Positions 14,184 through 51,671 of a stretch of DNA of 64,000 nucleotides are shown one piece after another. Source of the stretch: a virus. Each line of letters opens with the position of its first letter. Positions within the stretch are counted from its first letter, which is position 1. The position numbers and the translations under genes were made by a program. A model generated the notes under the pieces. It was not told where the DNA came from. It did not search any database and saw nothing but the letters and a program-made list of their open reading frames with translations. Location: IMG/VR virus record IMGVR_UViG_3300027905_000001, positions 15,362-79,361 of that record. One strand, written 5' to 3'.

Positions 14184-14603
14184 TTACATCTTTTCTGTTG
14201 TTTTGTCATACGCTTTCTCCTTTCGATAGTTCAACTCAAGCGTGGCGTAACCAATTATGTCGCGTATGGTGTCTTCTATCGCCTCGTCCTTTACTTGTGC
14301 AGGATTATTATCCAATTGTTCGATGCGGTTCAGCTTGTCCGATATGCGGATATAGAATCCTACCGGGCCATATTTGTCACGAAGTTGATCATAGGAATTT
14401 CCGTAGTCAGTGTTTTTACGTTCGATCAGATCAGCTATTGGATTAAGGATTTCGGAGAATTTGTTTTCCTTCGGAACTTCGATTGGCATCCAACATTTAA
14501 GCCTTGGGATGCATTGATTACATACTATCTGGGCATTATCATACTTACAGGTTTTGCACGTTTTATTGATCATTTTGTTCCCCCTTAGCATCGAATATCT
14601 CAA
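14184..14603 (-). CDS. Hypothetical protein with N-terminal CxxC pairs
   Basis: Track ORF. Confidence 0.4.
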   Translation of the reverse strand: MRYSMLRGNKMINKTCKTCKYDNAQIVCNQCIPRLKCWMPIEVPKENKFSEILNPIADLIERKNTDYGNSYDQLRDKYGPVGFYIRISDKLNRIEQLDNNPAQVKDEAIEDTIRDIIGYATLELNYRKEKAYDKTTEKM

Positions 14604-16855: not shown

Positions 16856-17374
16856 TTAATTGATATAATTTGACATTAATTTTGCCCCGGCTTCTTGTAC
16901 GACCTTAACCGCTTGTTCAAGTTCTTTATATACTCCTAGCCCTATCTGTTTTCGATTAATCATTAAGTAGGCTCGCCATTTTTTGGATGATTTGCGCCAA
17001 CTAACGCCCCTAAATCCTGAATTAGTTTTGCATTCTGCTTTTCTATTTTGCATGTTTACTGAATGAGTTACATTTCTAAGATTCCCTTTTGTATTATTTA
17101 ATGTGTCATGGTCAACGTGATCTACCACTAAATCATCGGGGCAATTGGTTATTAATCGATGTAGGCGTTTTGGTTTCAATCCTTCGCTAATCGACACATT
17201 ACTTATGGCATAAAACGAACTTGTCCCTTCAGACCAAAGAGCATGCCACTTTGCACCACCTTTTTGGGCTATCTCTAAATCCTCCCTATCAATTAAAGTT
17301 TCCATCACAGATCCATCTTCTCTATCTAAAAATATTGCCACTTTATCCCCTCTAAATTCGAATCTGTTTTTCAT
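16856..17374 (-). CDS. HNH homing endonuclease with AP2 DNA-binding domain
   Basis: HNH block LVVDHVDHDTLNNTKGNLRNVTHSVN; AP2-like FRGVSWRKSSKKWRAYL. Confidence 0.7.
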   Translation of the reverse strand: MKNRFEFRGDKVAIFLDREDGSVMETLIDREDLEIAQKGGAKWHALWSEGTSSFYAISNVSISEGLKPKRLHRLITNCPDDLVVDHVDHDTLNNTKGNLRNVTHSVNMQNRKAECKTNSGFRGVSWRKSSKKWRAYLMINRKQIGLGVYKELEQAVKVVQEAGAKLMSNYIN

Positions 17375-20129: not shown

Positions 20130-20340
20130 TGTCTGAGTATCCTAATTCGTCCCAATCGAAGATACCCACGTTCGAGCCCATGTCATGTTTGGCTCTAAAA
20201 TTGCAGATCCTTTTGGTGTTGCATCGTAATTCCTCCGCTATTTGCCTGTCTGTAAGTCCGTTTAGCCATAGTTGCTCGATAGCTTCAGCTTCCATAGGGC
20301 TTATTGATTGTGCCATTTTCATTTTGTACCTCCCTAACAA
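20074..20340 (-). CDS. Small HTH protein (sigma-70 region-4 / LuxR-like)
   Basis: LTDRQIAEELRCNTKRI. Confidence 0.4.
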   Translation of the reverse strand: MLGRYKMKMAQSISPMEAEAIEQLWLNGLTDRQIAEELRCNTKRICNFRAKHDMGSNVGIFDWDELGYSDNGKRNYNKNEEAEHVKNI

Positions 20341-20668
20341 GTTTTACTCCATAAAAATCCATCAACTTCGCACATGTAGGGCAAGGTATAGGATCAACCT
20401 CATCAGCGCATACTAGATACAACTCTGCACCTTCAAGGCTTTCCCTCGCATTAATGAGTGCCATTTGCTCTGCATGCACACTAGAACATTCGGCGTAATC
20501 TCCTACGTTATGCTCTATATCCAATCTGGAGCACGTAACGCATGTTGTAGGGCTTGTATTCCATCCCTTTGATATAATCTGACCATGCAGGACGATTACG
20601 CATGCGTAGCGACGCTTGAGGCAGTTCGAGCAGGGTAATAGTTTTCGTGCTTCGTCGAAGTAGTTCAA
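20285..20668 (-). CDS. Cytidine/dCMP deaminase-fold zinc enzyme
   Basis: VHAEQ (H-A-E) and PCPTC (PCxxC) about 28 residues apart; start overlaps radical-SAM stop by 4 nt. Confidence 0.6.
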   Translation of the reverse strand: MNYFDEARKLLPCSNCLKRRYACVIVLHGQIISKGWNTSPTTCVTCSRLDIEHNVGDYAECSSVHAEQMALINARESLEGAELYLVCADEVDPIPCPTCAKLMDFYGVKLVREVQNENGTINKPYGS

Positions 20669-21390
20669 ATGTTACCCTCCATAGCTTTTCTCAAATCATC
20701 CTTGATGTAATAATTGCACCCGTGCATCTTAAGTACCATTTCGACATTCTCGCCAGTCTGTTTCCAGTCAATCTGATTCGCTCTTGAATCGTAATTCCAG
20801 CGACCAACTTTCCAAAGGTCAACGTGTTTATGGAGAATATGGATAAAGTCAAGTGCATCGGCAGGAATGATGATAGGCTCAAGACTTACCCATGTTTTTA
20901 TTCCAAGCGTTCTTGCCGTTATGATGGCAGCTATTCGATCATCTACGGGTGCTGCGCCTTTTTCCCACCGTTCAGAGCATTTGCGGACAGTCAAGGTTGT
21001 CCCGAACGAATCACCCTTTTCGTACAAGCTAAAATCTCTACTCGCCCTCATGCCGCCTTTTGTTAGAACGGTGAAGTTTGCTCCTGCGTTTTTGATGGCT
21101 TCGATAATTTCTTTGGTTGGAGTTGTGTCAATATCGCAATAAGGATCTGTTGAAAAGCATAGAAGGATATTCTTGCCTTTGAACTTACCGCTTGATAATT
21201 GCTTTTTGGTCGCTTCAACTATTCCTTCGCGCGGTTTAACGTCAGCGAAATCTTCGTTTGGTTTCCATCTGTCGTGCATCTTTTTGGCAAAGCAATAAGT
21301 ACATAAATGTGAACATCCCTCGTAGATATTAAGAGCTAAGGGTGCATATTCAAGAGCTTTTCCGCTCGGCTTATAAATCGGATTGATCAT
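20665..21390 (-). CDS. Radical SAM enzyme (SplB/COG1533-like N-terminus)
   Basis: CxxxCxxC within LNIYEGCSHLCTYCFAKK. Confidence 0.65.
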   Translation of the reverse strand: MINPIYKPSGKALEYAPLALNIYEGCSHLCTYCFAKKMHDRWKPNEDFADVKPREGIVEATKKQLSSGKFKGKNILLCFSTDPYCDIDTTPTKEIIEAIKNAGANFTVLTKGGMRASRDFSLYEKGDSFGTTLTVRKCSERWEKGAAPVDDRIAAIITARTLGIKTWVSLEPIIIPADALDFIHILHKHVDLWKVGRWNYDSRANQIDWKQTGENVEMVLKMHGCNYYIKDDLRKAMEGNI

Positions 21391-23852: not shown

Positions 23853-25079
23853 TTACTCGACCCCTATTCTAGCCCTTGCAATACCCGCATAAGCTTTTTC
23901 TTTGTCAATTCCGATAAAATGGCAACCTACACCCTTTGCGGCCAATGCGGTTGTGCCTGATCCAATAAAGGGGTCTAGCACCGTACCGCCTTGAGGTGTG
24001 ACAAGTTTAATTAAGTACTTCATGAGATCAAGGGGCTTTACGGTAGGGTGATTATTACCTTCGCCCCGTTCCCTCTTGGAGGCCTTAGCACAATAAAAGA
24101 ATCTACTTGCCCCTCCCGAATCGCCATAACTAATCATTTCCGTTCCCTCTGGACGACTTTCTCTTGCGTAAGCATTAGCCTGATAACCTTTACTTGATAC
24201 TCCCTTTTTAGCTCCAGTTCCACTTTTCAGTATGCCTGTTTGCTCATCCAGAACTGCAGCTGCTACTTCATCAAAAATTATGTTTGCGGGAAATCTTCCC
24301 AATGGATTACTTTGGCTTTCTGTTAAGTTGGTTCCCTTTCCGTTTCCATATACTGTATTTGGTGTACGTGGTGGTCTACCTCTATCGTCATTGGTCCCTA
24401 TTCGGCTATCGTTGATATTGATCCCACCTGTTCCCCATTTAAGAACATTAGCCGCCACTGTCTTTTCGCTTAATGGTTTTCTGGCAACTACAATAGGTTC
24501 ATGCGCAGGTTTTAGAGCCGTACCCCAACCGTCCCATTGCTTTGCTTCATCAGTTTGAGCATCTAGATCGAATGTTCCACCCAACTCATACGATGCTGGC
24601 CTATCTCCCTGCTCTAAATGGATGTTATTGAAACCCATCCCTTGCTGCTGAAAATTAGTCTTTTCCAGCTTGCAGTAATCCTTTGTATTAGCTGACCCGT
24701 AAAGCAGTTTACCTTCAATACCCTTGGCAATGTTGTAAGACTTAGGGAATCCACTGCCATAAATCCACATGATCTGATCCCTGATCTCGAATCCAGCGTC
24801 TTCAATAGCACAAGCCATTCGGTGGTATGTTCTGCTCCCACCGAAGGATAGTAGATATCCCCCAGGCTTTAGTACACGTAAAAATTCTTTCCACATTGCA
24901 ACGTTGTAGGCAATTCCGGTATTGTCCCAAGACTTCCCCATGAATCCCAATTCATAAGGCGCATCCGTTACGCCAGAATCTATACTATTTGCGGGTATTC
25001 CCTTCATAACTTCCAGGCAGTCACCTAAAATAATTGAATCAAGCAAACTTTTACCCCTCCCTTTACTCAGCCTGTCCAC
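23853..25079 (-). CDS. DNA methyltransferase (N6-adenine / N4-cytosine beta-class)
   Basis: N-terminal TDAPY (DPPY-like) and C-terminal VLDPFIGSGTT (FxGxG), in beta-class order. Confidence 0.65.
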   Translation of the reverse strand: MDRLSKGRGKSLLDSIILGDCLEVMKGIPANSIDSGVTDAPYELGFMGKSWDNTGIAYNVAMWKEFLRVLKPGGYLLSFGGSRTYHRMACAIEDAGFEIRDQIMWIYGSGFPKSYNIAKGIEGKLLYGSANTKDYCKLEKTNFQQQGMGFNNIHLEQGDRPASYELGGTFDLDAQTDEAKQWDGWGTALKPAHEPIVVARKPLSEKTVAANVLKWGTGGININDSRIGTNDDRGRPPRTPNTVYGNGKGTNLTESQSNPLGRFPANIIFDEVAAAVLDEQTGILKSGTGAKKGVSSKGYQANAYARESRPEGTEMISYGDSGGASRFFYCAKASKRERGEGNNHPTVKPLDLMKYLIKLVTPQGGTVLDPFIGSGTTALAAKGVGCHFIGIDKEKAYAGIARARIGVE

Positions 25080-37598: not shown

Positions 37599-37645
37599 GC
37601 AATATGTAAATTATACTTTCTTTTATGGAAATGAGGAAAATATTT

Positions 37646-37984
37646 ATGATTATCGGTATGGGCAGTAGAATTAGAGTTCTTCGACTTGAACGAGGGTTAA
37701 CACAGGACCAAATGGCATATAAACTGGACATGAATCGTGCGAATTTCTCACATTACGAAAGAGACACATCTTCCCCACCGTGCGAAGTTCTGGTCAAAAT
37801 AGCTGATATTTTAAATACAACTACAGATTTCCTTCTTGGACGCACAGATACTAATCCACCCGATGCTGCAACAATCAAACAACTACAAGGAATTAATGAA
37901 TTACCGCAAGACAAGAGAAGATTTGTAATAAATATAATAAATTCGATTATTTCAGAAATAATCGAAGAGGCTAAGGAGGAATAG
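37646..37984 (+). CDS. CI-like HTH XRE-family repressor, coupled to integrase
   Basis: RBS GAGGAAAA; VLRLERGLTQDQMAYKLDMNRANFSHYERD; stop 3 nt before integrase ATG. Confidence 0.6.
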   Translation: MIIGMGSRIRVLRLERGLTQDQMAYKLDMNRANFSHYERDTSSPPCEVLVKIADILNTTTDFLLGRTDTNPPDAATIKQLQGINELPQDKRRFVINIINSIISEIIEEAKEE

Positions 37985-37986
37985 GT

Positions 37987-39465
37987 ATGCATGGAATACT
38001 ATACCTGCGCAAAAGCAGAGAAGATGAGCAATATGAAAAAAATACTGGCGAAGATGTTCTGCAAACCCATCGCGAACGTTTGGTTATGCTCTGTAAGTCG
38101 CGGGAAATTACCTTCGACGAACGCGCAGAGGTACGAAGCGGTGATACGATCGCAGGTCGGCCTAAATTTCAGAATATACTAGATACGGATCTCCCCTCTG
38201 GTCAATACTCTTGTATCATTGTTACTGAAATTTCTCGACTTGGCAGAGGGGACATGGAGGATGCAGGAAGAATATACAAAACCATAATCCACAACGAGAT
38301 TAAGATTGTCACGCCGAATAAAATATATGATCCGTTAAACCCTTCCGATCTTCGCCAGCTAAGGTTCGAGCTATTCATGTCTCGGGAGGAATACGAAAGC
38401 ATTAAGGAAAGACTATGGAATAATAGAAATTACCGGGCAACACAAGGTTATGCCGGCAATTATATTGTCACGCTCGGTTTTCGCCAGTCCAGGGGGATAG
38501 TCGAGATAATCCCCGAAGAGGAAAAATTAGTGCTTGAAATATTTACGATGCGCTCTGAAAATTACTCCTATCAAGAAATAGCGGATTACTTTAATTCCAG
38601 AAATTTAAAGACAAAACGCGGAACAAAGTATCATGAATCTACAATATATAAGATATTAAAAAATCCCAGGTATATAGGAGTGGCTAAGTGGCAAGGCAAG
38701 GAATATATAGCTAAGCACCCTGCGATAGTCTCATTGGACCTATGGAACTCTGCGCAGGATATCAACGCTGAAAGACATCACAAGAGACGAGGGTCAAAAA
38801 ACGATAACCCTTATCTAGTAGAGCTATACTGTCGAGAATGCGGGCAAAGGATGTACGGGGAACGCTCTACCCCGCAAAGGGTAATAGATGGTGTTCGAAA
38901 GCTATATAAAAGCAGAGACATCTATATTTGTAGGGGCAGAAAAAGCATCCCTAAATGTTGGCACCACATAGGAGCCAGCGTTGTTCACTCGACCATCCTT
39001 GATGAGCTTGGGAAGATAATATCAGATCCGCAGATTTTTCTTGAGTTAGTCAACGAGAGAGAATCAAGACTTGGCGTCGATACTAATGGTTTATCAGATC
39101 AAGTGGATGAATTAAATAAGCAAGTCAAGGATAAAAACATCCTTTTGGTAAAAATAGAGAACGATTATGAAAAAGGCGACCTATCCGCTTTGCTATATAC
39201 TAAACACGTTGAAAAAATATCCAAAGAAATAGCATCTATTGAAGGTAGGATAAAAAAAATTAAGGCCGATTTATTAAAATCAGCCATTAAGATTAGTCCT
39301 CCTATGGAATTACAATCAATTTTGAAAACATTCCTAAATAACTGGAACGCCTATCCTAATAGTGACAAGAAGCTCATCATTAGATCATTTCTTCCCAGGG
39401 TTGAGGTGAACAAGCAGGGTGAATTCTTTATCGCTATTACTTTGCCTGATTCTATCGAAATTTAG
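37987..39465 (+). CDS. Large serine recombinase (phage integrase, serine type)
   Basis: N-terminal resolvase-type catalytic domain (YLRKSREDE), recombinase domain, Cys-rich zinc ribbon, C-terminal coiled coil; 492 aa. Confidence 0.8.
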   Translation: MHGILYLRKSREDEQYEKNTGEDVLQTHRERLVMLCKSREITFDERAEVRSGDTIAGRPKFQNILDTDLPSGQYSCIIVTEISRLGRGDMEDAGRIYKTIIHNEIKIVTPNKIYDPLNPSDLRQLRFELFMSREEYESIKERLWNNRNYRATQGYAGNYIVTLGFRQSRGIVEIIPEEEKLVLEIFTMRSENYSYQEIADYFNSRNLKTKRGTKYHESTIYKILKNPRYIGVAKWQGKEYIAKHPAIVSLDLWNSAQDINAERHHKRRGSKNDNPYLVELYCRECGQRMYGERSTPQRVIDGVRKLYKSRDIYICRGRKSIPKCWHHIGASVVHSTILDELGKIISDPQIFLELVNERESRLGVDTNGLSDQVDELNKQVKDKNILLVKIENDYEKGDLSALLYTKHVEKISKEIASIEGRIKKIKADLLKSAIKISPPMELQSILKTFLNNWNAYPNSDKKLIIRSFLPRVEVNKQGEFFIAITLPDSIEI

Positions 39466-39515
39466 CAAACGGGAAACCTTCCGACAATTTCAAAATAGGG
39501 AAGGTTTCCCGTTTG
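39466..39515 (+). terminator. 17-bp perfect inverted repeat after integrase stop (terminator or att-site candidate)
   Basis: caaacgggaaaccttcc / ggaaggtttcccgtttg around a 16-nt loop. Confidence 0.5.
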
Positions 39516-39520
39516 CGGTT

Positions 39521-39784
39521 TTATATCTTTCCTTCATATAATAAGGATTTCAAGAGTTCTATTCCGTCATTGAATCCCTGCTTATATGTATTTTCCAGAA
39601 GAGCATCCACTCTTGATGTTGATAATTCTTCATAGCGATCAAAAATATTTCTTTCCTTACCCAGTAATCTTATTATGTCAACGCTCAAGGAAATGGATTC
39701 TTTTATCCACTCACTGTAATCAGTTGTTTCTTTTGTTTTTTGATAAGCAACGCCAAAGATTCTTTCCGGCATCAGCTTGTCCAT
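39521..39784 (-). CDS. Hypothetical protein
   Basis: Track ORF. Confidence 0.3.
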   Translation of the reverse strand: MDKLMPERIFGVAYQKTKETTDYSEWIKESISLSVDIIRLLGKERNIFDRYEELSTSRVDALLENTYKQGFNDGIELLKSLLYEGKI

Positions 39785-40194
39785 GATAATATCAAGTATT
39801 TTTTCAGTCGGAATATTTTTTTCAATATCTATATCCTCATCTCCTGCCTGAATTTATGTTTTACCAGTCTCTATATACTAGAACGTGTGTTCTTAATTTT
39901 CAAGGGGTAATTTGTCGCAAAAGAAATAAATCGTTTCTCTTCCCCTTTCTCTCGCTACCCGTAGGAACAAAGTCCTACAATCAGTCCTAGATATAATTCA
40001 GAATATTTATTTAAGTTATTGACAGTATACGCTATAACGTTTGTCGAAATCGCGTGAAATAAAGGAGGCCAAATGTGAATATTTTGTGATTATAAATTAT
40101 ACTTAAGTCTACATATTATAATACCTGCTACATTTTTGTGTTAGCAGGATTAATCCTATCCTCTGTGGAAGTATTTTCCTATGGTGGTGAGGCG

Positions 40195-40416
40195 ATGGAT
40201 TTAGAAGATAAGTTAAAGGATAACAAAATACAATACATACTAGACAAGCGTGATATGTCGCAAAAAGACCTTGCCGCAACGCTCGGGTGGTGGCCGAGTG
40301 ACATAAGCGACATCGTTAACGGTAAGGTTAAGCGCCTTACGCTCATTCGCGCTTCGATGATATCCGTTGCTCTCGGGTATTCGGTTGAGTATATTTGGCC
40401 TACTTTATTCAAGTAG
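40195..40416 (+). CDS. HTH XRE-like regulator
   Basis: ATG after GGTGGTGAGG; MSQKDLAATLGWWPSDISDIVNGK. Confidence 0.5.
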   Translation: MDLEDKLKDNKIQYILDKRDMSQKDLAATLGWWPSDISDIVNGKVKRLTLIRASMISVALGYSVEYIWPTLFK

Positions 40417-40431
40417 GCCAAATATTTTTTT
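40396..40431 (+). terminator. Rho-independent terminator overlapping gene 3' end
   Basis: 9-bp stem tggcctact/agtaggcca then T-run. Confidence 0.65.
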
Positions 40432-40553
40432 ATATTTTTTTAGTCATAAAATTAGACTTTCGTCTATATACTTTATCACACCCAGTAAGCCACCGTCACA
40501 CCACGTCTTACACTATACTACGCCAGTCAGACAAAATTTTGAGAGGTGAGAAT

Positions 40554-40760
40554 GTGAAGAAAAGAAGAACTTTTTGGGACGGAGATGATCTTTGCTCAAA
40601 GCTAGACGCAATACCAGAAAATGAACTAAGTACCATAATCCGCATGGCACTACGAGCATGGTTTAAGATCGACAGCAAGCCCGAACTAACCGTTACCGAC
40701 GCAAGGCAGATAGCGCAGGAGCTGGTAAGGCAACGCAAAGTTGAAAGGAGCGAACGCTAA
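40554..40760 (+). CDS. Ribbon-helix-helix-like small protein
   Basis: GTG start after GAGAGGTGAG; RRTFWDGDDL...STIIRMALRAWF. Confidence 0.4.
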   Translation: MKKRRTFWDGDDLCSKLDAIPENELSTIIRMALRAWFKIDSKPELTVTDARQIAQELVRQRKVERSER

Positions 40761-40921
40761 TGTTCTGGAAGAAATCCATTAAAGCCTCCAAACTCTCAGG
40801 GCTTATCAAGGAAATAGCTAAGGCGGCATCATTAGTACCTTATGGGGATGGCGCGCTGGACTTAGGTTGGGAGGAACTAACCGTCAGTGATCTACTCGAA
40901 TGGATGGAGGAAAGTTTATAG
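40760..40921 (+). CDS. Hypothetical small protein (53 aa)
   Basis: TAATG coupling to upstream gene; not in track. Confidence 0.35.
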   Translation: MFWKKSIKASKLSGLIKEIAKAASLVPYGDGALDLGWEELTVSDLLEWMEESL

Positions 40922-40938
40922 GAAGTGAGGTTGAAATA

Positions 40939-41166
40939 ATGGACATAACTAAAATCCAAAAAATCGTTCGCAAGGCTATCAAGGACTACGCCATTACCGC
41001 AAAGTACGATGAGGAAATTCTAGTATCATTTCTCAGCGTGGATATTTTCCGGGAGATCAACGAGGATTCCCCGGCACCTCTCTCGGATCCCAAGGCTCCC
41101 CCTCGCCGCAATACTAACCAGAATGCATTAGGTCTGGTAAATCACGAAGCAGGTGAAACGCCATGA
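40939..41166 (+). CDS. Hypothetical small protein
   Basis: ATG after GTGAGG. Confidence 0.4.
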   Translation: MDITKIQKIVRKAIKDYAITAKYDEEILVSFLSVDIFREINEDSPAPLSDPKAPPRRNTNQNALGLVNHEAGETP

Positions 41167-42491
41167 GTGAAAAATCATCGTCCGTAAAGCCCGACCTGAT
41201 CGGCTTGACATCCTCTACTCTGGTCAAACTTGGACGCTTTGCCCTACGTCATATCGGCAGTCCCAACAACTCCTATGCGAACAAGATAATGCTGAACTGG
41301 AAACGCAATGACATATGCACCGAAACCAAAGAGCGAGGCAAGGATTACACAGAGAAGAAATACCCTACGCTAGTGGAAAAGACAATGAAGGGTCATAATC
41401 GAGTACTTAGATACAAGATACCCACCGGTCTAAATCCGCAGAAAGTCATGAAATCCCTCTACGACATCGAGTTCGATCTCAAGTCAGAAGTCCTATTCAA
41501 GCGACTTGAGAACGATCCCAAAGCGCACTTCTCACTCACTATCTTATCCGGCAAACTGTTAGACATTATCAACTACTCCAACGAGGCCAGTATTACTCCA
41601 GATGGCAAGGAGTTAAGCAAAGGTCTATGGATACCTCTAGGGTGGTCAAGAAGGGGCTTGGAACAACTTAATTTAGCCTCTAGCAACAGCCCTCATCTTA
41701 TGATCGGAGGGGCTACAGGAGGCGGCAAGAGCATCCTTGGCAGGCTTATCCTTGCTACCCTCCATATCCGCTATAACCGTGATGAATGCCGACTATGGCT
41801 CTGTGACCTTAAACATGGCAACGGCACAGCAAGGCTAGGGAAAAACCCTCTCCTTGTAGATAGGACTATTTCTGATCCGGGCGAAGCAGAACAAATGATG
41901 GACGATCTCTCTGTGATTATTGGCGAGCGATATAATTTATTTAAGGAGTATGAGTGCGACGATTTACAGGCGTTTAACGAGGAATATCCAAGATTGAGAT
42001 TGCCGCGCATTGTGGTTTATGTGGATGAATTAACCAAACTTGAGGGCAAGGAGTTCTCCAGGGCTCGTGAAAAGATGACTAAAGTCACGGGGGAATCCAG
42101 GGGTGCAGGAGTGCATGTTATTATCTCTTGTCACAGGCCCACAGCTAACCTTGTGTCCGGCACGATGAAGAACAATATCTCTGCCGTTGTCGCGTTTAAT
42201 TGCAACGCTGTATCGGCTCGTGTGTTGCTTGGAGAAGATCCGGAGGATTACAAGGCAGCCAGCATGATTGATCCAGATATCGAAGGTCGAGCATTGTTTA
42301 AATTTAAAGATGAGGTATTGCTGCAGGTCCCCTACATCGACAACCATGCAATCAAGTCCCTTATGGCCAACTATCAAAAAGCGATAATTAAAGGTAAGGT
42401 CGAGCCAGTGATACAGGCTGTTATTTCCACTAGGGTGGTTGAGCACTCAGTCGGGCACTCACTCGGTCATACTATTGAGCACCCCCAGTGA
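41163..42491 (+). CDS. FtsK/SpoIIIE-family DNA translocase-like ATPase
   Basis: Walker A GGATGGGKS, Walker B VVYVDE. Confidence 0.75.
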   Translation: MSEKSSSVKPDLIGLTSSTLVKLGRFALRHIGSPNNSYANKIMLNWKRNDICTETKERGKDYTEKKYPTLVEKTMKGHNRVLRYKIPTGLNPQKVMKSLYDIEFDLKSEVLFKRLENDPKAHFSLTILSGKLLDIINYSNEASITPDGKELSKGLWIPLGWSRRGLEQLNLASSNSPHLMIGGATGGGKSILGRLILATLHIRYNRDECRLWLCDLKHGNGTARLGKNPLLVDRTISDPGEAEQMMDDLSVIIGERYNLFKEYECDDLQAFNEEYPRLRLPRIVVYVDELTKLEGKEFSRAREKMTKVTGESRGAGVHVIISCHRPTANLVSGTMKNNISAVVAFNCNAVSARVLLGEDPEDYKAASMIDPDIEGRALFKFKDEVLLQVPYIDNHAIKSLMANYQKAIIKGKVEPVIQAVISTRVVEHSVGHSLGHTIEHPQ

Positions 42492-42614
42492 TTGTACTCA
42501 ACGATTCAATGCGCTTTATAGGCTCCTTTGGTCATGCCGTGCGGTCCGTAAAGTGCTTTATTATCCTTACTTTTTTATTTTGTATTTATTTTATATTTTT
42601 GCGAGGTGAAAATT

Positions 42615-43244
42615 GTGAACTTAGTGGCATATGGCAAGCAACGAGACGAACGAATTATGGGGCTAGTAGGGCTTGGGACAGCCTTTACGCGAAGCCAAAT
42701 AGAGCGAGTTATATTTAAGGGAAGTAAGCGTAAGGCTCAGACTAGACTGCAGGTGCTATCCGATTCAGGGCGACTAAAAAAGATTATCCGCAGTCCCCAC
42801 GAACCAGCCATCTATTGCCTCAAAAAACCCCGAAATATCGATCATTATTTACTTATCAATGAAATCTATTGTGCCGTAATGTCTCAGAAAAAGTCTTGGC
42901 ATATCGTCAAGTGGCAATGGTCATATCCAATTATGGAAGGTAAGATTTGGGCAGACGCAATGGTTGATATTTACGACCAACTCAATAAGCGTAGGCATGT
43001 TATATTTGTTGAGGTTGAGCGTTACGCAGACCGTAAGTTCGAGAAGGATAAAAAGTATTCAGCCATTACCAGCGCGAACTGGACGAAAGAAGAGTGGGCG
43101 ATTAAGGAGCCTACAAGGATATTGTTCCCGGCAATCCTAGTTGTCACCGAATGCAAATTAGAGGTCAAAAGCGAGTTGGATTTCTTTGTTGCCACGATGG
43201 ACCAAGTCAAAAAAGACATTTACTCTATTATCTTAAGGAGGTAA
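42615..43244 (+). CDS. Replication-relaxation family protein (putative)
   Basis: GTG after GAGGTGA; N-terminal winged-helix-like segment; assignment from memory. Confidence 0.4.
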   Translation: MNLVAYGKQRDERIMGLVGLGTAFTRSQIERVIFKGSKRKAQTRLQVLSDSGRLKKIIRSPHEPAIYCLKKPRNIDHYLLINEIYCAVMSQKKSWHIVKWQWSYPIMEGKIWADAMVDIYDQLNKRRHVIFVEVERYADRKFEKDKKYSAITSANWTKEEWAIKEPTRILFPAILVVTECKLEVKSELDFFVATMDQVKKDIYSIILRR

Positions 43245-43248
43245 CACC

Positions 43249-43467
43249 ATGGGTAAACTAGGAAAAGTGACCACAAAGGCCACCTATGGAATCCTGAATC
43301 TGGCGATGAAACCTATTTACGATCAGATGAAAAAAGAGAGAAAAGAAGAAGTTAAAAGATGGAACAAATCGCTAGATATAGCTTCTCAGGATGCAATGGC
43401 CGAGGCTAGATATTTTGAAGTAAGGCAGCCGTTTGATTCGATTATCCACAAGCACCCATTGTGGTAG
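43249..43467 (+). CDS. Hypothetical small protein
   Basis: Track ORF. Confidence 0.4.
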   Translation: MGKLGKVTTKATYGILNLAMKPIYDQMKKERKEEVKRWNKSLDIASQDAMAEARYFEVRQPFDSIIHKHPLW

Positions 43468-43490
43468 TAATGACAATAGTAATGACTTTT

Positions 43491-43570
43491 AGCCCCTTCG
43501 TAAACCGAGGGGCTATTTTAATGCCCTGACATAACGAAACCCCAGCATTTGCCGGGGGTTAGTTTTTATT
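43491..43570 (+). terminator. Two tandem hairpin terminators
   Basis: agccccttcg...cgaggggct + ATTTTAAT; aaccccagc...gccgggggtt + AGTTTTTATT. Confidence 0.55.
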
Positions 43571-43645
43571 CTCTATTATTTATGGCTATTCGGATTATAT
43601 GGTGGAAAATGAGTTTGGAATTTCCAGTTTTATAATAAATAATTA

Positions 43646-43700
43646 CTACTATTATAGCGTTATCGCTTGACAAATTATAGCGATAACGCTATAATAGTAG
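43646..43700. promoter_or_regulatory. Perfect 22-bp inverted repeat enclosing a consensus promoter (TTGACA-17-TATAAT)
   Basis: ctactattatagcgttatcgct (43646-43667) is the exact reverse complement of 43679-43700; -35 at 43667-43672, -10 at 43690-43695. Confidence 0.75.
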
Positions 43701-43763
43701 TAACAGCTAAAGATTACATGAACCCGACAGCCCATAAGGGGCGGGGCGAGAGGAGAATATAAA

Positions 43764-44624
43764 ATGGCAAATGAAGTCGTCAAGGAATACTACAAATGGG
43801 ATGAAACAGGTGAAGCTTTTGGCATAAGTATAAGCTACGATGCCGGAGATGACTGTGGTCCAGTTGCTGGGCTTAAACTAAGTGGTGGACAACCAAAAGA
43901 AGTCAACGGTCAAAATGTCGTTTGGTTCGAAAAAACAACCAAAGGTCAGCCCGTCGCCATAAAGTATAACAGCCGTCCCGATTTAGCAGCCCTTGTGAAC
44001 GAGTATAAAAAGTTTCAGGCTGAGCAACAAACAAGGCATAATACCCGGGCTGCTGCACATCAAGCCGAGCGGGAAGCCATAGACAACCCTCTACTTGAGG
44101 ACATGGAAGCAGAAGCTGTTGAATTGCGGAAAAAGATTCCGACCGGGCATATCGAGGTTGATGTCGAGGATAATGGCAATCTTGACGGCTATCCTAATTT
44201 AAAATACTCAGTAAACGGCGTTGAATTGCCTTGGGATAAGGTCAACCATATTGGCACTGCGAGTGCGATTCGCCCAGGCGCATTAGGTTCTTTTGCTCAA
44301 ATTTATGTCGTATCTATCGCCAAGGATCAAATCGAACAAATCAAAAAAGAGCAGGAAGAGAAATCGGCAATCAACCAAGCTAAAAAAGAGGCTTACCAAA
44401 GAGAATTAACTGGGACTATAATCCCTCCGGCGGCCTTAGAGGCTTACAACTATTACCACGGTGACGCAGAACTAGCATGGGAAAAAGAAGATGAATCCTC
44501 TTGGGCTCTTATTGAACGATGGACCACTTATATCGAGGCACAACATGGGATTGCCCCTCGTAAATTACAGCACATGGTTTCGGAATCCGCGCGCGAAGAG
44601 AATTATGGGATCAATGAGGGTTAG
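43764..44624 (+). CDS. Hypothetical protein (286 aa) under the palindromic operator
   Basis: RBS GAGAGGAG; track ORF. Confidence 0.5.
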   Translation: MANEVVKEYYKWDETGEAFGISISYDAGDDCGPVAGLKLSGGQPKEVNGQNVVWFEKTTKGQPVAIKYNSRPDLAALVNEYKKFQAEQQTRHNTRAAAHQAEREAIDNPLLEDMEAEAVELRKKIPTGHIEVDVEDNGNLDGYPNLKYSVNGVELPWDKVNHIGTASAIRPGALGSFAQIYVVSIAKDQIEQIKKEQEEKSAINQAKKEAYQRELTGTIIPPAALEAYNYYHGDAELAWEKEDESSWALIERWTTYIEAQHGIAPRKLQHMVSESAREENYGINEG

Positions 44625-44645
44625 TGGAGAGAGTGTTTGAAAAAA

Positions 44646-44680
44646 GAAAGAGCCGTAATCAATCGGCTCTTTCTGGATAA
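44646..44680 (+). terminator. Rho-independent terminator
   Basis: gaaagagccg / cggctctttc stem then T-rich. Confidence 0.6.
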
Positions 44681-44784
44681 CTTTTTATTTCAATCCACGC
44701 CTTACGGCGACAATCCTTGATGGGATTTATTACCCATAATATAATCCAAATAGCAGTATATGTCAAGACTAAGGAGGGCATTTC

Positions 44785-45492
44785 GTGAAAAAGAAACATC
44801 GGTCTATTTCGCAGATACTTGATAGATCGAAATCTGCCGAATCAAGAAGAGCTATCACTATAAATTGGTCAAAGTCATGGGAAAATGAGACCATGGAACT
44901 CATACGTAACCTTGAACAGGCTGTAAGGGCCATGGATTACGATCAGCTATGCATTAATACCAGGCAGCTTAAGGCGGTTACTCAAAAACGTTTTGGAGCC
45001 CTGCCAAATATATTTATGCACCTCACTAAGGCTGGTGCCGCAGAGAAAAACCCGGAAAAAGAACCCGAACCATTAGCCAATGCAGCTGTACAAGATATAC
45101 ACAAAAAGCAGGATGTCCCAAAAGAACCAGATGAGCCGAGCCATGCGGAGGAGCAGCATGTGCCCGGAATCTGCATAGACTGTGGTGTCAGTTTTAATGC
45201 TAAAACCAGCCGCCAAAAGCGGTGCCCCGAGTGCCAAGTTGAACACAACAAGGCGTTACGGTTAGCCGCGGCCAAGGCAACTCAAGATGTCAAAAGAGAT
45301 AGGCCTCTTTTGGATATCATGGAGGGATACATTACGGTAAAAGAATGGGCGAGCAAGCACGGTAAGAGTCCGTCCAGCGCTCAGAATATATTGTCCAATT
45401 CCCCTACTCTTGTACCAGCTGCCAGAAAGGTGCGCAATCCTCGCGGCGGCGTGGATATCTGGGTCGTACCAAAAGAGACAATATGGCCTTAA
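44785..45492 (+). CDS. Hypothetical protein with C-terminal zinc ribbon
   Basis: GTG start after AAGGAGGG; CIDCG...CPEC. Confidence 0.45.
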   Translation: MKKKHRSISQILDRSKSAESRRAITINWSKSWENETMELIRNLEQAVRAMDYDQLCINTRQLKAVTQKRFGALPNIFMHLTKAGAAEKNPEKEPEPLANAAVQDIHKKQDVPKEPDEPSHAEEQHVPGICIDCGVSFNAKTSRQKRCPECQVEHNKALRLAAAKATQDVKRDRPLLDIMEGYITVKEWASKHGKSPSSAQNILSNSPTLVPAARKVRNPRGGVDIWVVPKETIWP

Positions 45493-45513
45493 TAAAATAA
45501 AGGAATGATAGCG

Positions 45514-45693
45514 ATGGAACTTAAAGACGTACTAACAGGTCCCGAAGCTGCGCAACTTTGGAGCATTGGAGAGTCAACAGTCCGCAATGCAGCTGCGGCG
45601 GGTAAATTCAACGAAGACGAAGCTCGAAGGGCAGGGAAAAACTGGCTAATCACCAGAGAAGGCATGAAAAGAGTATTTGGTGATCCTAACTAA
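45514..45693 (+). CDS. Small HTH DNA-binding protein (excisionase-like)
   Basis: LTGPEAAQLWSIGESTVRNAAAAGKF...WLITREGMKRVFG. Confidence 0.45.
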   Translation: MELKDVLTGPEAAQLWSIGESTVRNAAAAGKFNEDEARRAGKNWLITREGMKRVFGDPN

Positions 45694-46805: not shown

Positions 46806-47060
46806 CTAAAATACACACTCGCACGGAAGTTCATCAAAAAAGCTCAATTGCTTACCATGCGTCTTGGCTAACTTCCAAAACTGAGCCGATGCAATATGCT
46901 CTGTCGCGGGAACATCATTACGCTTCATTTCTTCAAACATTGGTTCCATTTCATCGAGATACATATCCGACTTTATGGAGTGACCTATTTCATTTTCTGC
47001 CTCTTTTGCCTTTAACCATATGTCGGGTCGCGTCATATAAACGATGTACCAATGTTGCAT
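46806..47060 (-). CDS. Hypothetical protein
   Basis: Track ORF. Confidence 0.35.
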   Translation of the reverse strand: MQHWYIVYMTRPDIWLKAKEAENEIGHSIKSDMYLDEMEPMFEEMKRNDVPATEHIASAQFWKLAKTHGKQLSFFDELPCECVF

Positions 47061-47085
47061 CCCCGCCTTTAAACACCCAATGCAA

Positions 47086-47630
47086 TTAGCGTGTTTGAAT
47101 GTGCCGTAGGTCCCAGGGGGGAGTTATTCCTATTTCTTTTGTGCTTTTTATTGTGTGATCCCAAAGAATAAGAGGGTAGTCCGTCTTGTATCCCCTTATG
47201 CCTAATATTGACGAACGTCTTTGCGCTCTGCCTTTTTCCTTCTCCGACTTGTCGAATCCGTAGTATATGGTAACTTCTTCGCAAATTCCGTCTTTGACAG
47301 GGAAATTTTCCTTGAGGTATTTATCGAAGGGAACCGTTTTTATTCTGTTTGTGCAAAGTATTTGTCCTGCTCCAAACTTGAACCCTCCTACTTCTCGGCA
47401 TACATCGAATTGGTCTTTTACTTCCCATCCGTCCATATTTGCGTAGGTAATCGGAACGCCTATATAATTTGCTACATCACCCTTGAACCGTTTTATATCC
47501 GCATCCTCTACCCTTTTATTAATATCGTGATTAAGGAGGATTAAATCTTTAGTTCCGTATTTCCTAGCTACTTCTATTGCTGTTTTTGCCGAACTATGTC
47601 CTCCAGAGTAACAAATCAAGCGTTTTATAA
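47086..47630 (-). CDS. PP-loop ATP-pyrophosphatase-like protein (PAPS-reductase/QueC-like superfamily, putative)
   Basis: SGGHSS P-loop-like motif in LICYSGGHSSAKTA; start uncertain (track 47697 overlaps upstream HTH ORF). Confidence 0.35.
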
Positions 47631-47635
47631 TTATT

Positions 47636-47815
47636 TTACCTCCCCTTCTCGATCCATTCAAGGACCGAATTTCTCTCAATTCTCCAATCTCTGGCAATCT
47701 TAAACGCCCTTAGTCCTCCACTTTTAATTGCCCTCTTGACCGTTTGTTCGCTCACTTTTAAAAATGTTGCAAGTTCTTTAGGGGTTGTGATTTCTGGTAA
47801 ATTATCAAGTACCAA
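47636..47815 (-). CDS. Excisionase-family HTH DNA-binding protein (59 aa)
   Basis: TTG after GGAGG; TPKELATFLKVSEQTVKRAIKSGGLRAFKIARDWRIERNSVLEWI; not in track. Confidence 0.45.
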   Translation of the reverse strand: MVLDNLPEITTPKELATFLKVSEQTVKRAIKSGGLRAFKIARDWRIERNSVLEWIEKGR

Positions 47816-48051
47816 CTATATCTAACCTCCATTCTATTATATCTAAGTATATCACAAAATAGCATAGTTGTACATGTTAGCAAGGTAAAAAATGGTCAAT
47901 ATTTCTAGATACTTAGCCATTGTTGATAGTGACTTGCTTCGTCGTTCTTGCTTCGTTTATGGTTCGCGTATAGTTGTGATTTAGTAGCTCAACTTCGTCG
48001 TTCCCTTATAATCCGGTAAGAGGGAACGGAAACGTTTAGATAGTTACCCCC

Positions 48052-48597
48052 TTACGCCACGCCTTGTACTCTTAACACTTTCATAATCTCATCCTCAAGG
48101 TTTTCTAGTTTTCCAAATTTGTAATTTATCCTATAGAGCCTTATGTTATTGTCCCTACAATACCTGTTCTTTAGGACATCATGAGCTACCGTATTCCCTC
48201 CCCACTCATCACCCTCTTTATGCTGCGCCCCGTCAATTTCGATTAAAAAGGGCCTTAATTCTCCTTGGATATAGAAATCGAACCTCAATAATTTACCGTT
48301 TAAGCCCTTTAACCCTTTAAATGTTTTTTCTTTCTGGAATATAGCATTATACCTTGTTAATATTTCTATAGCCTTTTCTTCGCCGAATGATTTTCCCGTC
48401 ATGCAATTTCGACAAATAGGGTTTTTGATTAATAGCTTTCTTTTAACAAGCATGGTGTTGTTGCATTTAGGACATAGGCATTCGATCTTGCCATATTTCT
48501 TACCTAGATTTATAAGTCCACTAACTTTTAACTTCTCTTGATTTCGTTCAAAGTTAATTTGATTAGTTATGGCTTTCTGTGCCTTAGATTTACTCAA
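48052..48597 (-). CDS. DUF559/Vsr-like PD-(D/E)xK endonuclease with N-terminal zinc ribbon
   Basis: CLCPKC...CRNC; LRFDFYIQGELRPFLIEIDGAQH; probable TTG 48597 after AAGGAG (track ORF extends to 48765). Confidence 0.5.
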   Translation of the reverse strand: MSKSKAQKAITNQINFERNQEKLKVSGLINLGKKYGKIECLCPKCNNTMLVKRKLLIKNPICRNCMTGKSFGEEKAIEILTRYNAIFQKEKTFKGLKGLNGKLLRFDFYIQGELRPFLIEIDGAQHKEGDEWGGNTVAHDVLKNRYCRDNNIRLYRINYKFGKLENLEDEIMKVLRVQGVA

Positions 48598-49074
48598 CCA
48601 CAAACACTCCTTATATACGTTCTTAAAGAAGATCCGGTAGAGGGGCCGGAGGAAGGACAAAGTTATGCCCCTCATTCGAAGAAAATGGACTGTTTTAGTC
48701 CAAAATCCAAGAATGAGAGAAGCATATTTTAATTTATCCGTGTGTCGGTTCCTCGGATATCTCAAACCTAGTTGATATGTTGCTCTCGCAAATATACGCT
48801 ACTCTACTAACGCGCCCATAGAGTGGAATGTGCGTACACCCCGTCAACACGTCACATGCTGACCGCTATTTTAACCTCCTGTATGCCGTTTAAGGGCCGC
48901 CATCGCCCAACGCAAGGTCATAGACAAAACTAGGAATTATCTCGCTTGCGCCACCAGTTTGGTTATAAGCAGCCGGTAACTGCATATAGTTTATAGTGTG
49001 TTTATACTTCCACTAGACAAACACAAAGCGACAAACCCTTGACGGCCTGTCGCTGAAAATTCCTTAATTTACAC

Positions 49075-49299: not shown

Positions 49300-49812
49300 T
49301 TATGCAGTTTGTTCTTCCTTCTCTTCGACAACAGGAGTAACCACAACAGGCTTAACAACAGGAGCCCATTGTATCTTACTCAACTCCTGCTGTACAACAC
49401 TAACAATACCGAGTGCATCAGGAGCAATCTTCTGTACTGCAGCCGTAATCATGGCGTTAATTTTTTCCTCAGTATAAGGTGTAGCGGTCCCAACTAACTG
49501 TGCAAGTTCATCTTTAGCTTTTTTGTACGCACTCTCGATAAGTGTTTCCCATTGCGAATCTGTAAGGCTAATTCCTGCTTTTTTAGCAAGTTCCTTGACC
49601 GATGCAAGTGCAGCAACATATTTTCCTGAGCCCAGTGTTACACCGTGCTTTTCTGCGTATTGAGCGGCGAAGTTGACCGCTTCTGTTGCGAGTTCTCCTG
49701 CTGTGGCGAGTTGTTTGGATGAGATGTGTAGCTTGCCGATGATGGCGACGATTACGGCTACGGCGAGACTTGCGGCGATGTTTACACCTTGAGTTATTGT
49801 TGTCATATCCAT
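49300..49812 (-). CDS. Holin, LL-H-like family
   Basis: N-terminal TM (NIAASLAVAVIVAIIG), then amphipathic region resembling LL-H-type holins; ATG 49812 after AAGGGGGA. Confidence 0.55.
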   Translation of the reverse strand: MDMTTITQGVNIAASLAVAVIVAIIGKLHISSKQLATAGELATEAVNFAAQYAEKHGVTLGSGKYVAALASVKELAKKAGISLTDSQWETLIESAYKKAKDELAQLVGTATPYTEEKINAMITAAVQKIAPDALGIVSVVQQELSKIQWAPVVKPVVVTPVVEEKEEQTA

Positions 49813-49897
49813 ATTAAAGATATCCCCCTTTTGTTTTAATAAGAGTTGGTGTGATGGGTTGTTATTAAAGCGACTAGGTATTATGCACAAAGGCTAT

Positions 49898-50107
49898 TTA
49901 TTCGCGCCGAGCTATGCTCGCATTTCCCCACATAACTGCTTCTTCAATAGCGGTTATGGCTAAGGATTGTTCTCTTGAGGGTGGGCATAACGTTAAAATT
50001 ATCTCAGCAAATGCTTTGCCCATGCCCCTAATTTCCTCGAACCTTTGTGCTTGCCCATCTTTCGGGTCATGATAAGTAAAACGGTTTTCCAATTCATTCT
50101 CATCCAT
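49898..50107 (-). CDS. Conserved small phage protein, unknown function
   Basis: RFTYHDP...SREQSLAITAIEEAVMWGNASIA; family not identified. Confidence 0.45.
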   Translation of the reverse strand: MDENELENRFTYHDPKDGQAQRFEEIRGMGKAFAEIILTLCPPSREQSLAITAIEEAVMWGNASIARRE

Positions 50108-50209: not shown

Positions 50210-50680
50210 TTATTCGATTATGGTCCAGTCTTCGACGAGCATATCGGTTTGTGACGCTAACCAGCCCATAAGAATTTTATTATCTGCCGTTTTCATGATG
50301 ATGTATGGCAAAACGTCCGCGCTCCCGCCATTTTCCTCAGCGAATTTCCGACTGTGTTTATTCCAGAATCCTTCAGCTTTCAAGCTGTTGGCTTCGGGGT
50401 GAGAAATTGCAATCCACATTGCTTTACCGTTCCAACCCTGACGAGCAACCTTAAAACCCTTTTTCATGGCTTCAATCGCCAATCCAAACGTCATACCATC
50501 AGTTTGGCGGTAGGCCGCCTCGAACACATCTTTAGGCGACCAACTTACATAATCATCCTCGCAAATAACCTTGTAGCCGTCTTGGCATTCTCCAGAATAA
50601 ACCAGGGGTCTTACTTGCTCGTTATACTCCGCAACAGTCATTGGTTCGGCATGAATAATTTTTACTCCAATATATTGCAT
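50210..50680 (-). CDS. DUF2829-like protein (Tad2-like candidate)
   Basis: MTFGLAIEAMKKGFKVARQGWNGKAMWI ... WLASQTDMLVEDWTII; internal ATG would give ~94 aa. Confidence 0.45.
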   Translation of the reverse strand: MQYIGVKIIHAEPMTVAEYNEQVRPLVYSGECQDGYKVICEDDYVSWSPKDVFEAAYRQTDGMTFGLAIEAMKKGFKVARQGWNGKAMWIAISHPEANSLKAEGFWNKHSRKFAEENGGSADVLPYIIMKTADNKILMGWLASQTDMLVEDWTIIE

Positions 50681-50867: not shown

Positions 50868-51671
50868 TTACCCCACCACTCCCAACACAGCTTTCATCGT
50901 TGCCCACCGATCAGCACCAGCCAGCAACGCAACCCCACTGGGTGCACTAGAACCCCCAACCTGATACTTAGTTGTCGCCATAGCTAACAATGCAGGAGTC
51001 GCAAAACTAGCCTGTACAATCGGGCAATTAAGCTTCAATGCCAAGTCTGCCGCAATCGGTAAATCTGCGTCTCCATAATAAAGCACTAAGTAATTCATAC
51101 TTCCTCCAATCTCCGGCCAACAGCCAGAACCGTAATTAATTTCGTTTAGGTCAACACTGATACCCGCTATTTGAGTATCGTTTTGATACTGATAAATGTC
51201 ATTGCCCTCGTGTATCTCACCGCCTGACCACGCATATGTCTGCCAATAGCGGTCAACGTCAAGGGCTTGCATGACCGCGTAAGAGCCGTAAACTCCTAAG
51301 AGGTATTTGCTCCCTAATCCATCGCCCACGCCCTGGAAATAGTCCACTATGGCTCCCATATCAGTAGATTGTGCGTCGAAGTCAACCGTGAAATATATCG
51401 CTATGCCGTTTGGTGCTCTGAGGTTGACGGCAGCTGTTATGGCTTGTGCTGCGTCTGATATGCCTTGATTGTAGGTGAAATAGGATGCGGTTGTGGGATT
51501 TGTTTCAAAGATGAGGAATACGGATAAGCTTGCATTGTGGATGGCTGTGAGTTCGGTTGGAGTTAATGCGTAATCGCCAGTGAGGTAGCGGCCTACGGCC
51601 ACTACTCCATCAGCTTTTAGGACTGTTACTATTGCCGCGGTTAAAGTTGCTGCACAATCTATCGCTTCCAT
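50868..51671 (-). CDS. Endolysin candidate: glycoside-hydrolase-like (DUF1906-type) domain plus cell-wall-binding-like C-terminus
   Basis: GVVAVGRYL, YFTVDFDAQ blocks; C-terminal LLAGADRWATMKAV resembles CWB2 repeats. Confidence 0.5.
   Translation of the reverse strand: MEAIDCAATLTAAIVTVLKADGVVAVGRYLTGDYALTPTELTAIHNASLSVFLIFETNPTTASYFTYNQGISDAAQAITAAVNLRAPNGIAIYFTVDFDAQSTDMGAIVDYFQGVGDGLGSKYLLGVYGSYAVMQALDVDRYWQTYAWSGGEIHEGNDIYQYQNDTQIAGISVDLNEINYGSGCWPEIGGSMNYLVLYYGDADLPIAADLALKLNCPIVQASFATPALLAMATTKYQVGGSSAPSGVALLAGADRWATMKAVLGVVG

Follow-up and report, generated by a model that had tools for sequence, protein, structure and literature searches.

The window studied here, a 64,000-nucleotide stretch of viral DNA (positions 15,362 to 79,361 of IMG/VR virus record IMGVR_UViG_3300027905_000001), holds between 47086 and 48597 three minus-strand open reading frames (ORFs), present as an initial annotation had described them: one with an SGGHSS motif, one for a 59-residue helix-turn-helix (HTH) protein and one for an endonuclease. 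The locus is situated in a temperate phage of Candidatus Desulfosporosinus infrequens, with the lysis genes on one side and the lysogeny module on the other. We think it fairly probable that these are three independent genes, of which the first encodes a disabled stand-alone sulfurtransferase that would be fed by IscS and probably acts against restriction, the second a local HTH regulator, and the third a selfish endonuclease.

Phage genes annotated as "PAPS reductase" (PAPS, 3'-phosphoadenosine 5'-phosphosulfate) are very common and are often taken for auxiliary genes of sulfur metabolism. The family marked by SGGHSS is instead probably a sulfurtransferase that depends on host IscS and has an anti-restriction role, because it matches SspD, its only solved relative is a phage protein bound to IscS, no phage-encoded partner accompanies it, and in the window Tad2- and Acb2/Tad1-like genes are among its neighbours. 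This re-reading bears on the annotation of viromes and on the biology of phosphorothioate-based defence. The window copy itself adds little, being a broken member of a known, poorly understood phage family with two ordinary and unrelated neighbours.

A PP-loop gene with two lesions

The enzyme gene and its damaged sites are the following:

46806..47631, minus strand: disrupted gene of a PptA/SspD-like PP-loop sulfurtransferase, delimited by end-to-end alignment with homologues after removing one C
47116..47121, minus strand: C6 homopolymer (G6 on the plus strand) with a +1 frameshift, located by DNA alignment with three intact relatives
47626..47645, minus strand: translation start region of the enzyme, from reading of the sequence and DNA alignment with relatives

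The ORF that carries SGGHSS (47697..47086, minus strand; 203 residues, including LICYSGGHSSAKTA) comprises the first two thirds of a gene of about 274 residues that runs on the minus strand from 47631 to 46806. The N-terminal 182 codons of this gene lie in a single frame (47631..47086), and three-frame translation places the C-terminal part in the -1 frame, as an 84-residue ORF at 47060..46806 with its stop at 46806. At its other end, the 203-residue ORF begins with 24 residues read from a TTG at 47697, inside the HTH gene, that have no counterpart in homologues. The homologues begin MKHxVCYSGGHSS and, beyond the point at which the window ORF stops, continue through PPGTYGTFKHANCIGCLKAG to LPCECxF. 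The 203-residue ORF is thus a mechanical artefact at both termini.

Compared with the three intact relatives, the aligned window DNA has one base too many in the C6 run, at which the expected reading is ATA ACT CCC CCT GGG (I T P P G). Removing one C restores a product of 274 residues with the C-terminus LPCECVF. This repaired protein retains 99 of the 105 columns of at least 90% conservation, intact members deviating at 0–8 such columns, and split copies occur in just 3 of the other 165 related loci. An artefact of the assembler was considered and is ruled out, since an independent Logan assembly of SRR6195974, whose contig was reached by exact look-up with the endonuclease sequence, shows both the C6 run and the split into 203 and 84 residues unchanged. 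The exact match at NCBI, from a 79-kb contig of Candidatus Desulfosporosinus infrequens, bears the product label 'Gp66, putative (fragment)'.

The start of the gene is also altered. A GGGGAGG sequence at 47645-47639 is followed by ATT at 47631-47629, 7 nt past GGAGG, and ATA at 47628-47626, one codon after the ATT, occupies the position of the ATG or GTG of the relatives. Neither ATG, GTG nor TTG is present at the homologous start in the sequence and its alignment, and the next TTG (47619-47617) lies 19 nt from the Shine-Dalgarno sequence. Judged from these two lesions, the +1 frameshift and the loss of the canonical start codon, the gene appears to have been recently inactivated or severely crippled; the intact state of the conserved residues suggests that both lesions are recent.

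A widespread phage family

The search for homologues, which covered 5.8 billion proteins, returned 987 relatives of the PP-loop ORF, most of them from phages and prophages, nearly all of 265–290 residues and covering only 84% of the query; clustering at 50% identity gave 956 family representatives. Among cultured phages, members are found in Pseudomonas phage Epa43, Escherichia phage Huey and several Vibrio phages, with 'PAPS reductase-like' proteins of mycobacteriophages as more distant relatives. Prophage members at 46–58% identity come from Bacillota, Proteobacteria, Bacteroidota, Nitrospira, Chloroflexi and cyanobacteria. Plasmid-borne members are rare, and the names of remote members are uninformative.

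The proteins have the PP-loop (adenine-nucleotide alpha-hydrolase) fold, that is, a Rossmann-like alpha/beta/alpha arrangement with a nucleotide-binding loop after strand 1. In 20 full-length members, S8, G9, G10 and S13 are invariant and H11 and S12 nearly so, which together make up the SGGHSS motif. Also conserved are the motif DIKRFK, the cysteine C92, the motif HANCxGCLK (with C180 and C183) and many basic residues. The C-terminal tail P-C-E-C-x-F is nearly invariant and is predicted to be flexible, with a predicted local distance difference test score (pLDDT) below 65 in the last 20 residues. The SGGHSS ORF had been taken for a PP-loop ATP pyrophosphatase; this holds for the fold, but the frameshift had been missed, so that the ORF was not the whole gene, and the Asp of the canonical SGGxDS motif is not there.

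Relation to SspD, PptA and PAPS reductases

SspD inserts sulfur in the Ssp type of DNA phosphorothioation. Its PADLOC model (PDLC02782), for which that library has no curated cut-off, matches all 20 members with a best E value of 3.3e-15. The same model gives 7.9e-10 for the repaired window protein, over positions 2-220 of 277, and 1.5e-11 for PptA. PptA is also the sole relative that the family profile finds among all PDB sequences (21fy_C, 9.6e-18, positions 4-234 of 273, 231 positions in all), and the LCT and NCxGC motifs of the family and of PptA are aligned in this match. The PptA sequence is 100% identical to that of a protein annotated as hypothetical in the T7-like Vibrio phage vB_VhaP_VH-5, where the gene is found by itself, flanked by the RNA polymerase and portal genes. 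Moreover, the PDB sequence search shows that 21fy also includes the cysteine desulfurase IscS of Escherichia coli (the sequence of 1p3w), each of the two proteins being present as two chains; PptA was thus solved as an IscS complex.

PptA resembles the SGGHSS family in being a stand-alone phage protein of similar size (250 residues against about 270) whose phage encodes no sulfur-relay partners, and in its LCT cysteine, its NCxGC motif and the GHS-type motif that follows it. Both end in a cysteine-bearing tail, ECSLVC in PptA and PCEC in the family. However, the PP-loop of PptA reads SCGAPS instead of SGGHSS, and the cysteine that precedes the loop is placed elsewhere. PptA also differs from the window gene in belonging to a lytic T7-like phage, whereas the window phage is temperate and its copy frameshifted. 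The evidence of an IscS complex concerns PptA alone and not the SGGHSS subfamily.

DndC is a PP-loop enzyme with a three-cysteine 4Fe-4S site and a cysteine dyad for sulfur relay, SspD is its equivalent in Ssp systems, and IscS can substitute for DndA (PMC10853773). The SGGHSS proteins share with SspD and DndC the PAPS-reductase-like PP-loop fold and cysteines fit for an Fe-S cluster and a persulfide relay, C92 and C180-x-x-C183 being the candidate Fe-S site; a cysteine desulfurase would be the sulfur donor for the family as it is for SspD and DndC. The differences lie in the setting and in the loop. Operons for SspD or DndC also contain the genes of SspA/B/C or DndA/B/D/E and belong to defence islands, whereas the SGGHSS enzyme is solitary in 166 loci, phage-borne and devoid of the Asp of SGGxDS. 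The genes sspA, sspB and sspC encode a desulfurase, a nickase and an ATPase, respectively. No DndC model was matched in NCBIfam or PADLOC, on the assumption that both libraries contain one.

We propose the following mechanism. The phage enzyme would dock on host IscS, and persulfide sulfur would pass from IscS onto the cysteines of the enzyme. The enzyme would then deliver this sulfur to nucleic acid, the likeliest substrate being the backbone of the phage's own DNA, and restriction dependent on phosphorothioates (of the Dnd, Ssp or BREX-4 type) could thereby be evaded. No phage-encoded partner would be required. A precedent of a related kind is a phage gene that fuses a PAPS domain to Dam (PAPS-domain::Dam); genetic evidence showed that, with its neighbouring gene, it overcomes Dnd (preprint 10.1101/2021.05.05.442762). 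In addition, phage PAPS reductases under Aca control have been put forward as anti-defence genes (PMC13551039).

Several points weigh against this mechanism. Pairwise identity between the family and PptA is low, about 24% (E 7e-13), and no paper describing PptA was found; its complex with IscS could be productive or inhibitory. The Asp that is needed for the Mg-ATP pyrophosphatase chemistry of SGGxDS proteins is present in none of the 20 members, so that ATP pyrophosphatase activity is not assured, and the candidate Fe-S site is proposed from the pattern of cysteines only. Known phosphorothioation requires further proteins, either DndD/E or SspB/C, which the phages of this family do not have; in the window, a Pfam sweep of 54 further ORFs, whose complete list comprises 20 families, contains no Dnd or Ssp partner and no cysteine desulfurase. 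As to the window copy, low-level expression from the ATT codon, with ribosomal slippage on the C run, could leave it less disabled than we think. The promoter described below for the HTH and enzyme genes is a consensus match alone, and such sites are no commoner in the region than in shuffled sequence.

A bolder form of the same idea, which we regard as rather unlikely, is that the family performs phage DNA thiolation (with phosphorothioate or some other sulfur mark) as a single protein through IscS, with neither nickase nor ATPase, that the HTH protein is an Aca-like regulator within an anti-defence cluster, and that the C6 run is a slippage switch that turns the enzyme on and off. To our knowledge, nickase and ATPase partners are needed by all Dnd, Ssp and BREX-4 systems. 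If true, single-protein thiolation of DNA via the universally conserved IscS would explain the 46–58% conservation across phyla.

The same complex with IscS lends itself to an opposite interpretation, in which the protein binds desulfurases of the IscS/DndA type without catalysis or as an inhibitor, so that host phosphorothioation or other defences that depend on sulfur would run short of it. The deposition of PptA together with IscS agrees with this, as does the absence of the canonical SGGxDS both from PptA (SCGAPS) and from the SGGHSS family. Against it, the roughly 60 invariant residues of the family include a basic and polar set that resembles an active site (N33, H34, E41, D44, K46, R47, K49, K84, K97, R132, R135, R136, H177, N179 and K185), and the cysteines are conserved. 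Besides, a block of host modification would not shield unmodified phage DNA from restriction of the DndFGH or SspE type. We consider an IscS blocker quite improbable.

The initial annotation had cited QueC and PAPS-reductase-like enzymes as PP-loop enzymes known from phage DNA-modification systems, and neither identity was borne out by the profile searches. Pfam PAPS_reduct (PF01507) matches none of the 20 members at E <= 1 and gives no match for the window ORF, QueC matches 1 of the 20 at E 0.16, and the Pfam results for these members amount to marginal noise of the NAD_synthase, DUF7411 and QueC type. NCBIfam yields no family for a close relative (P0002, E <= 0.01) or for the window ORF (E <= 1). 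In PHROGs the window ORF has a match, at 1.6e-14, to phrog_424, a broad family that bears the label 'PAPS reductase'.

This label brings up the possibility of a true sulfonucleotide reductase, acting on PAPS or adenosine 5'-phosphosulfate (APS), as an auxiliary metabolic gene that supplies sulfite to host sulfur metabolism. The host is a sulfate reducer, and there is some likeness to CysH: the PP-loop is degenerate in both, the flexible cysteine-bearing tail of the family (P-C-E-C-x-F) is analogous to the ECGLH tail of CysH, although the motif is different, and APS reductases carry a cysteine-bound [4Fe-4S] cluster to which the candidate Fe-S site can be likened. However, the family has the motifs DIKRFK and HANCxGCLK in place of a PAPS_reduct match, and its solved relative binds IscS, which plays no part in PAPS reduction. 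Its members come from phages of hosts that differ greatly in sulfur metabolism, and they lie in replication modules or an anti-defence context, unlike CysH. A genuine PAPS or APS reductase is, in our opinion, very unlikely.

Genomic context of the enzyme

For the study of context, ORFs were called and neighbours within 3 kb of the enzyme were clustered, in 85 loci first and then in 166. No cluster of neighbours is common to more than 18 of the 166 loci, and neither a conserved partner nor Ssp partners are seen among them. The commonest real clusters, read by eye from representative sequences, are helicase, DNA polymerase and single-stranded DNA-binding protein, so the usual context of the enzyme is a replication or early module. 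In phage Huey the gene belongs to the nin region, where NinB and NinG flank it, and in each of the three closest relatives a gene for an N6/N4 DNA methyltransferase is found one or two positions upstream. The 85-locus set of neighbours contains no counterparts of the window endonuclease or of the two small ORFs downstream.

The context also matters for an alternative in which the substrate is RNA, for example a tRNA base as in TtuA, NcsA, TtcA or ThiI, and in which sulfur from IscS protects or tunes tRNAs during infection. IscS donates sulfur in cellular tRNA thiolation pathways, as is well established, the C...CxxC triad of the family resembles the three-cysteine cluster site of tRNA thiolases, and one phage lineage has an upstream gene that, by eye, is polynucleotide-kinase/HD-like. 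On the other hand, the profiles point to SspD and not to TtcA or TtuA, and no tRNA thiolase was matched in Pfam or NCBIfam; the enzyme lacks a THUMP domain, a zinc finger or any other RNA-binding extension, and its gene lies among DNA replication genes and DNA methyltransferases. We hold thiolation of RNA to be unlikely, and DNA remains for us the preferred substrate of an IscS-fed enzyme.

Two side observations concern the genes that follow the enzyme in other phages. In the closest relative (L092) a DUF4406/DUF7768 gene is directly downstream. About 10 loci that represent one phage lineage (L079-L088 and L105-L114, including some Oscillospiraceae genomes) have four genes downstream which, by eye, are PRPP (phosphoribosyl pyrophosphate)-synthetase-like, NAMPT-like, NAD-synthetase-like (with SGGKDS) and nicotinamidase-like. 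Together these four would be a set for NAD+ reconstitution, which would be consistent with an anti-defence island.

In the window phage, the following features lie upstream of the three genes:

50210-50680, minus strand: Tad2-like gene, E 1.7e-23, above the Pfam cut-off
49898-50107, minus strand: gene with an Acb2/Tad1 hairpin domain, E 1.8e-20, above the Pfam cut-off
49283-49256 and 49054-49027, minus strand: two terminator-like hairpins with 11-bp stems, just after the holin gene

The Tad2-like and Acb2/Tad1-like genes are located between the endolysin (50868-51671) and holin (49300-49890) genes, 2–3 kb upstream of the enzyme. Their domain matches make them candidate anti-CBASS and anti-Thoeris sponges in a Desulfosporosinus phage, and they fit an anti-defence neighbourhood. 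Terminator-like sites are more numerous than expected (8 observed against 2.6 +/- 1.7 in shuffles), and the two hairpins separate the late lysis operon from the block of endonuclease, HTH and enzyme genes. Megablast found no close phage relatives of the region.

The proposal that the three ORFs took part in DNA modification or anti-defence therefore keeps its plausibility for the enzyme, given the SspD match, the PptA–IscS complex and the Tad2- and Acb2-like neighbours. It does not extend to the three genes as a set, for neither the HTH gene nor the endonuclease gene recurs beside the enzyme in related loci.

The small HTH gene upstream of the enzyme

Two features were assigned to this part of the locus:

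47636..47815, minus strand: 59-residue DNA-binding protein of the HTH_17 (excisionase/MerR) type, above the Pfam and NCBIfam cut-offs
47846..47874, minus strand: promoter-like site TGTACA-17-TATACT with TG, found by consensus scan, 30 nt upstream of the HTH gene

The identification of the 59-residue ORF as an excisionase-type HTH protein was upheld by Pfam PF12728 HTH_17 (55.7 bits against a cut-off of 27, 6e-15) and by TIGR01764 'excise' (41.6 bits against 28.8, 1.2e-10). The model for the MADS MAD1 HTH protein, NF047737, scores 39.8 bits, below its cut-off of 80, and PADLOC mad1 gives 2.4e-5. The gene starts with a TTG 10 nt past GGAGG, and its stop codon is 4 nt ahead of the ATT of the enzyme. 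The site at 47846..47874 is a candidate promoter of an HTH–enzyme operon, and the HTH protein may be the local transcription regulator of these two genes.

In this respect the protein resembles the Aca-type regulators: it is small, and its gene directly precedes a candidate anti-defence gene with which it probably shares a transcript. Binding to its own promoter is putative, however, and its pairing with the enzyme is peculiar to the window phage: a search of 88 related loci found no HTH counterpart beside the enzyme. Unlike in the case of excisionases, no integrase is adjacent, and hence there is no evidence of excisionase action. Apart from a large serine recombinase, encoded 8 kb away on the opposite strand (37987-39465), no recombinase was found, and a second HTH_59/HTH_17 gene (45505-45693) is closer to the recombinase module.

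That module belongs to a plus-strand block (37625-45693) in an otherwise minus-strand phage. Besides the serine recombinase and the HTH_59 protein (45505-45693), the block encodes an XRE-type HTH protein, an FtsK/SpoIIIE-like ATPase (41163-42491) and a replication-initiator-like protein (42606-43244). It could represent either the lysogeny module of the phage or a small integrative element that is nested within the prophage.

A free-standing endonuclease gene

The third gene of the locus is the following:

48052..48597, minus strand: free-standing gene of the homing-endonuclease kind, 181 residues, with a TTG start 9 nt past AAGGAG

The mechanical ORF extends to 48765, and the 181-residue form that starts at TTG 48597 matches the NCBI annotation. 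The protein consists of an N-terminal helix, a zinc ribbon (CPKC...CRNC) and a Vsr-like PD-(D/E)xK domain with LRFDFYIQGE...LIEIDGAQH, in which the acidic and His residues of this fold are conserved. It has only eight homologues. In their alignment three zinc-ribbon cysteines and the residues E73, D107, E120, D122, H126, D140 and K143 are invariant. It had been read as a Vsr/DUF559-like nuclease. The Vsr-like fold is confirmed, but Pfam DUF559 gives no match at E <= 1, DUF5889 reaches 24.9 bits, below its cut-off of 27.1, and 'DUF559 domain-containing' is the name given in UniRef. The PDB sequence search for solved relatives returned zinc-finger noise only.

The order of residues E...D...ExD..H...D..K is shared with I-Bth0305I (EDxHD) and with Vsr/DUF559 nucleases, which are also phage-borne; the window ORF differs from them in being free-standing and in its N-terminal DNA-binding part, composed of a helix and a zinc ribbon. 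An intron around the gene was considered and rejected, the Rfam scan of the window at gathering thresholds having found no intron family; no split gene was found flanking the endonuclease either. Since its relatives sit in unrelated phage contexts, the supposed tie to its neighbours was not sustained, and the ORF reads as a selfish free-standing homing endonuclease with no apparent functional link to the HTH protein or the enzyme, an outcome that the initial annotation had itself named as counting against its proposal.

Two short similar sequences, CCCTCTACCGGAT and CCCTCTTACCGGAT, which resemble CCCTCT(T)ACCGGAT, flank the gene on the minus strand at 48633-48650 and about 48005-48030. They are found just upstream of the start and just downstream of the stop, each in a small hairpin. 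They are compatible with chance, and they could also be the edges of a mobile endonuclease cassette. The endonuclease is one of many in this phage, as further genes of the homing-endonuclease type occur in the window: one with HNH_3 and AP2 at 16856-17374 (minus strand), and others with NUMOD4, HNH_repeat and HNH.

Other nucleotide-modification genes and window features

The initial annotation had linked a QueC-like enzyme to the radical-SAM (S-adenosylmethionine) gene at 20665, and in the resulting scheme the two would take part in 7-deazaguanine modification of DNA. Besides a dCMP-deaminase-like gene that adjoins the radical-SAM gene (20285-20668, minus strand), other genes of the nucleotide-modification type are present in the window, namely those of a DUF1599 protein ('nucleotide modification associated domain 1', 14184-14603, minus strand) and of a DUF4406/DUF7768 protein found among the 54 swept ORFs, and to this extent the window would suit such a scheme. 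The evidence on the two central genes is unfavourable, however. The QueC match in a single member has been given above, and the radical-SAM protein (20665-21390, minus strand; Pfam Radical_SAM) matches the Rv2578c, PA0069 and 'mobile pair' families of NCBIfam, not QueE. Moreover, a distance of 26 kb separates the two genes, which belong to different modules, and the Pfam scans of the window ORFs contain no QueC, QueD, QueE or FolE family and no DpdA/TGT-type transglycosylase, so that the expected companion genes of the pathway are not among them. We regard this scheme as extremely improbable. It is possible that the radical-SAM, dCMP-deaminase-like, DUF1599 and DUF4406/DUF7768 genes form a nucleotide-modification set of their own in the early region.

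Two DNA methyltransferase genes were also seen. One encodes an N6/N4 enzyme (23853-25079, minus strand), in which residues 36-401 are matched by a Pfam model of 221 positions, a span that indicates a large insertion between the conserved methyltransferase motifs. The other, among the swept ORFs, is a C-5 cytosine methylase (E 1.1e-62).

Finally, the only Rfam matches at gathering score in the window are two twister ribozymes of type P5, at 6502-6558 and 7560-7621 on the plus strand, with 39.7 and 44.1 bits (gathering score 37.6). They flank an ORF at 6563-7057 in a plus-strand block.

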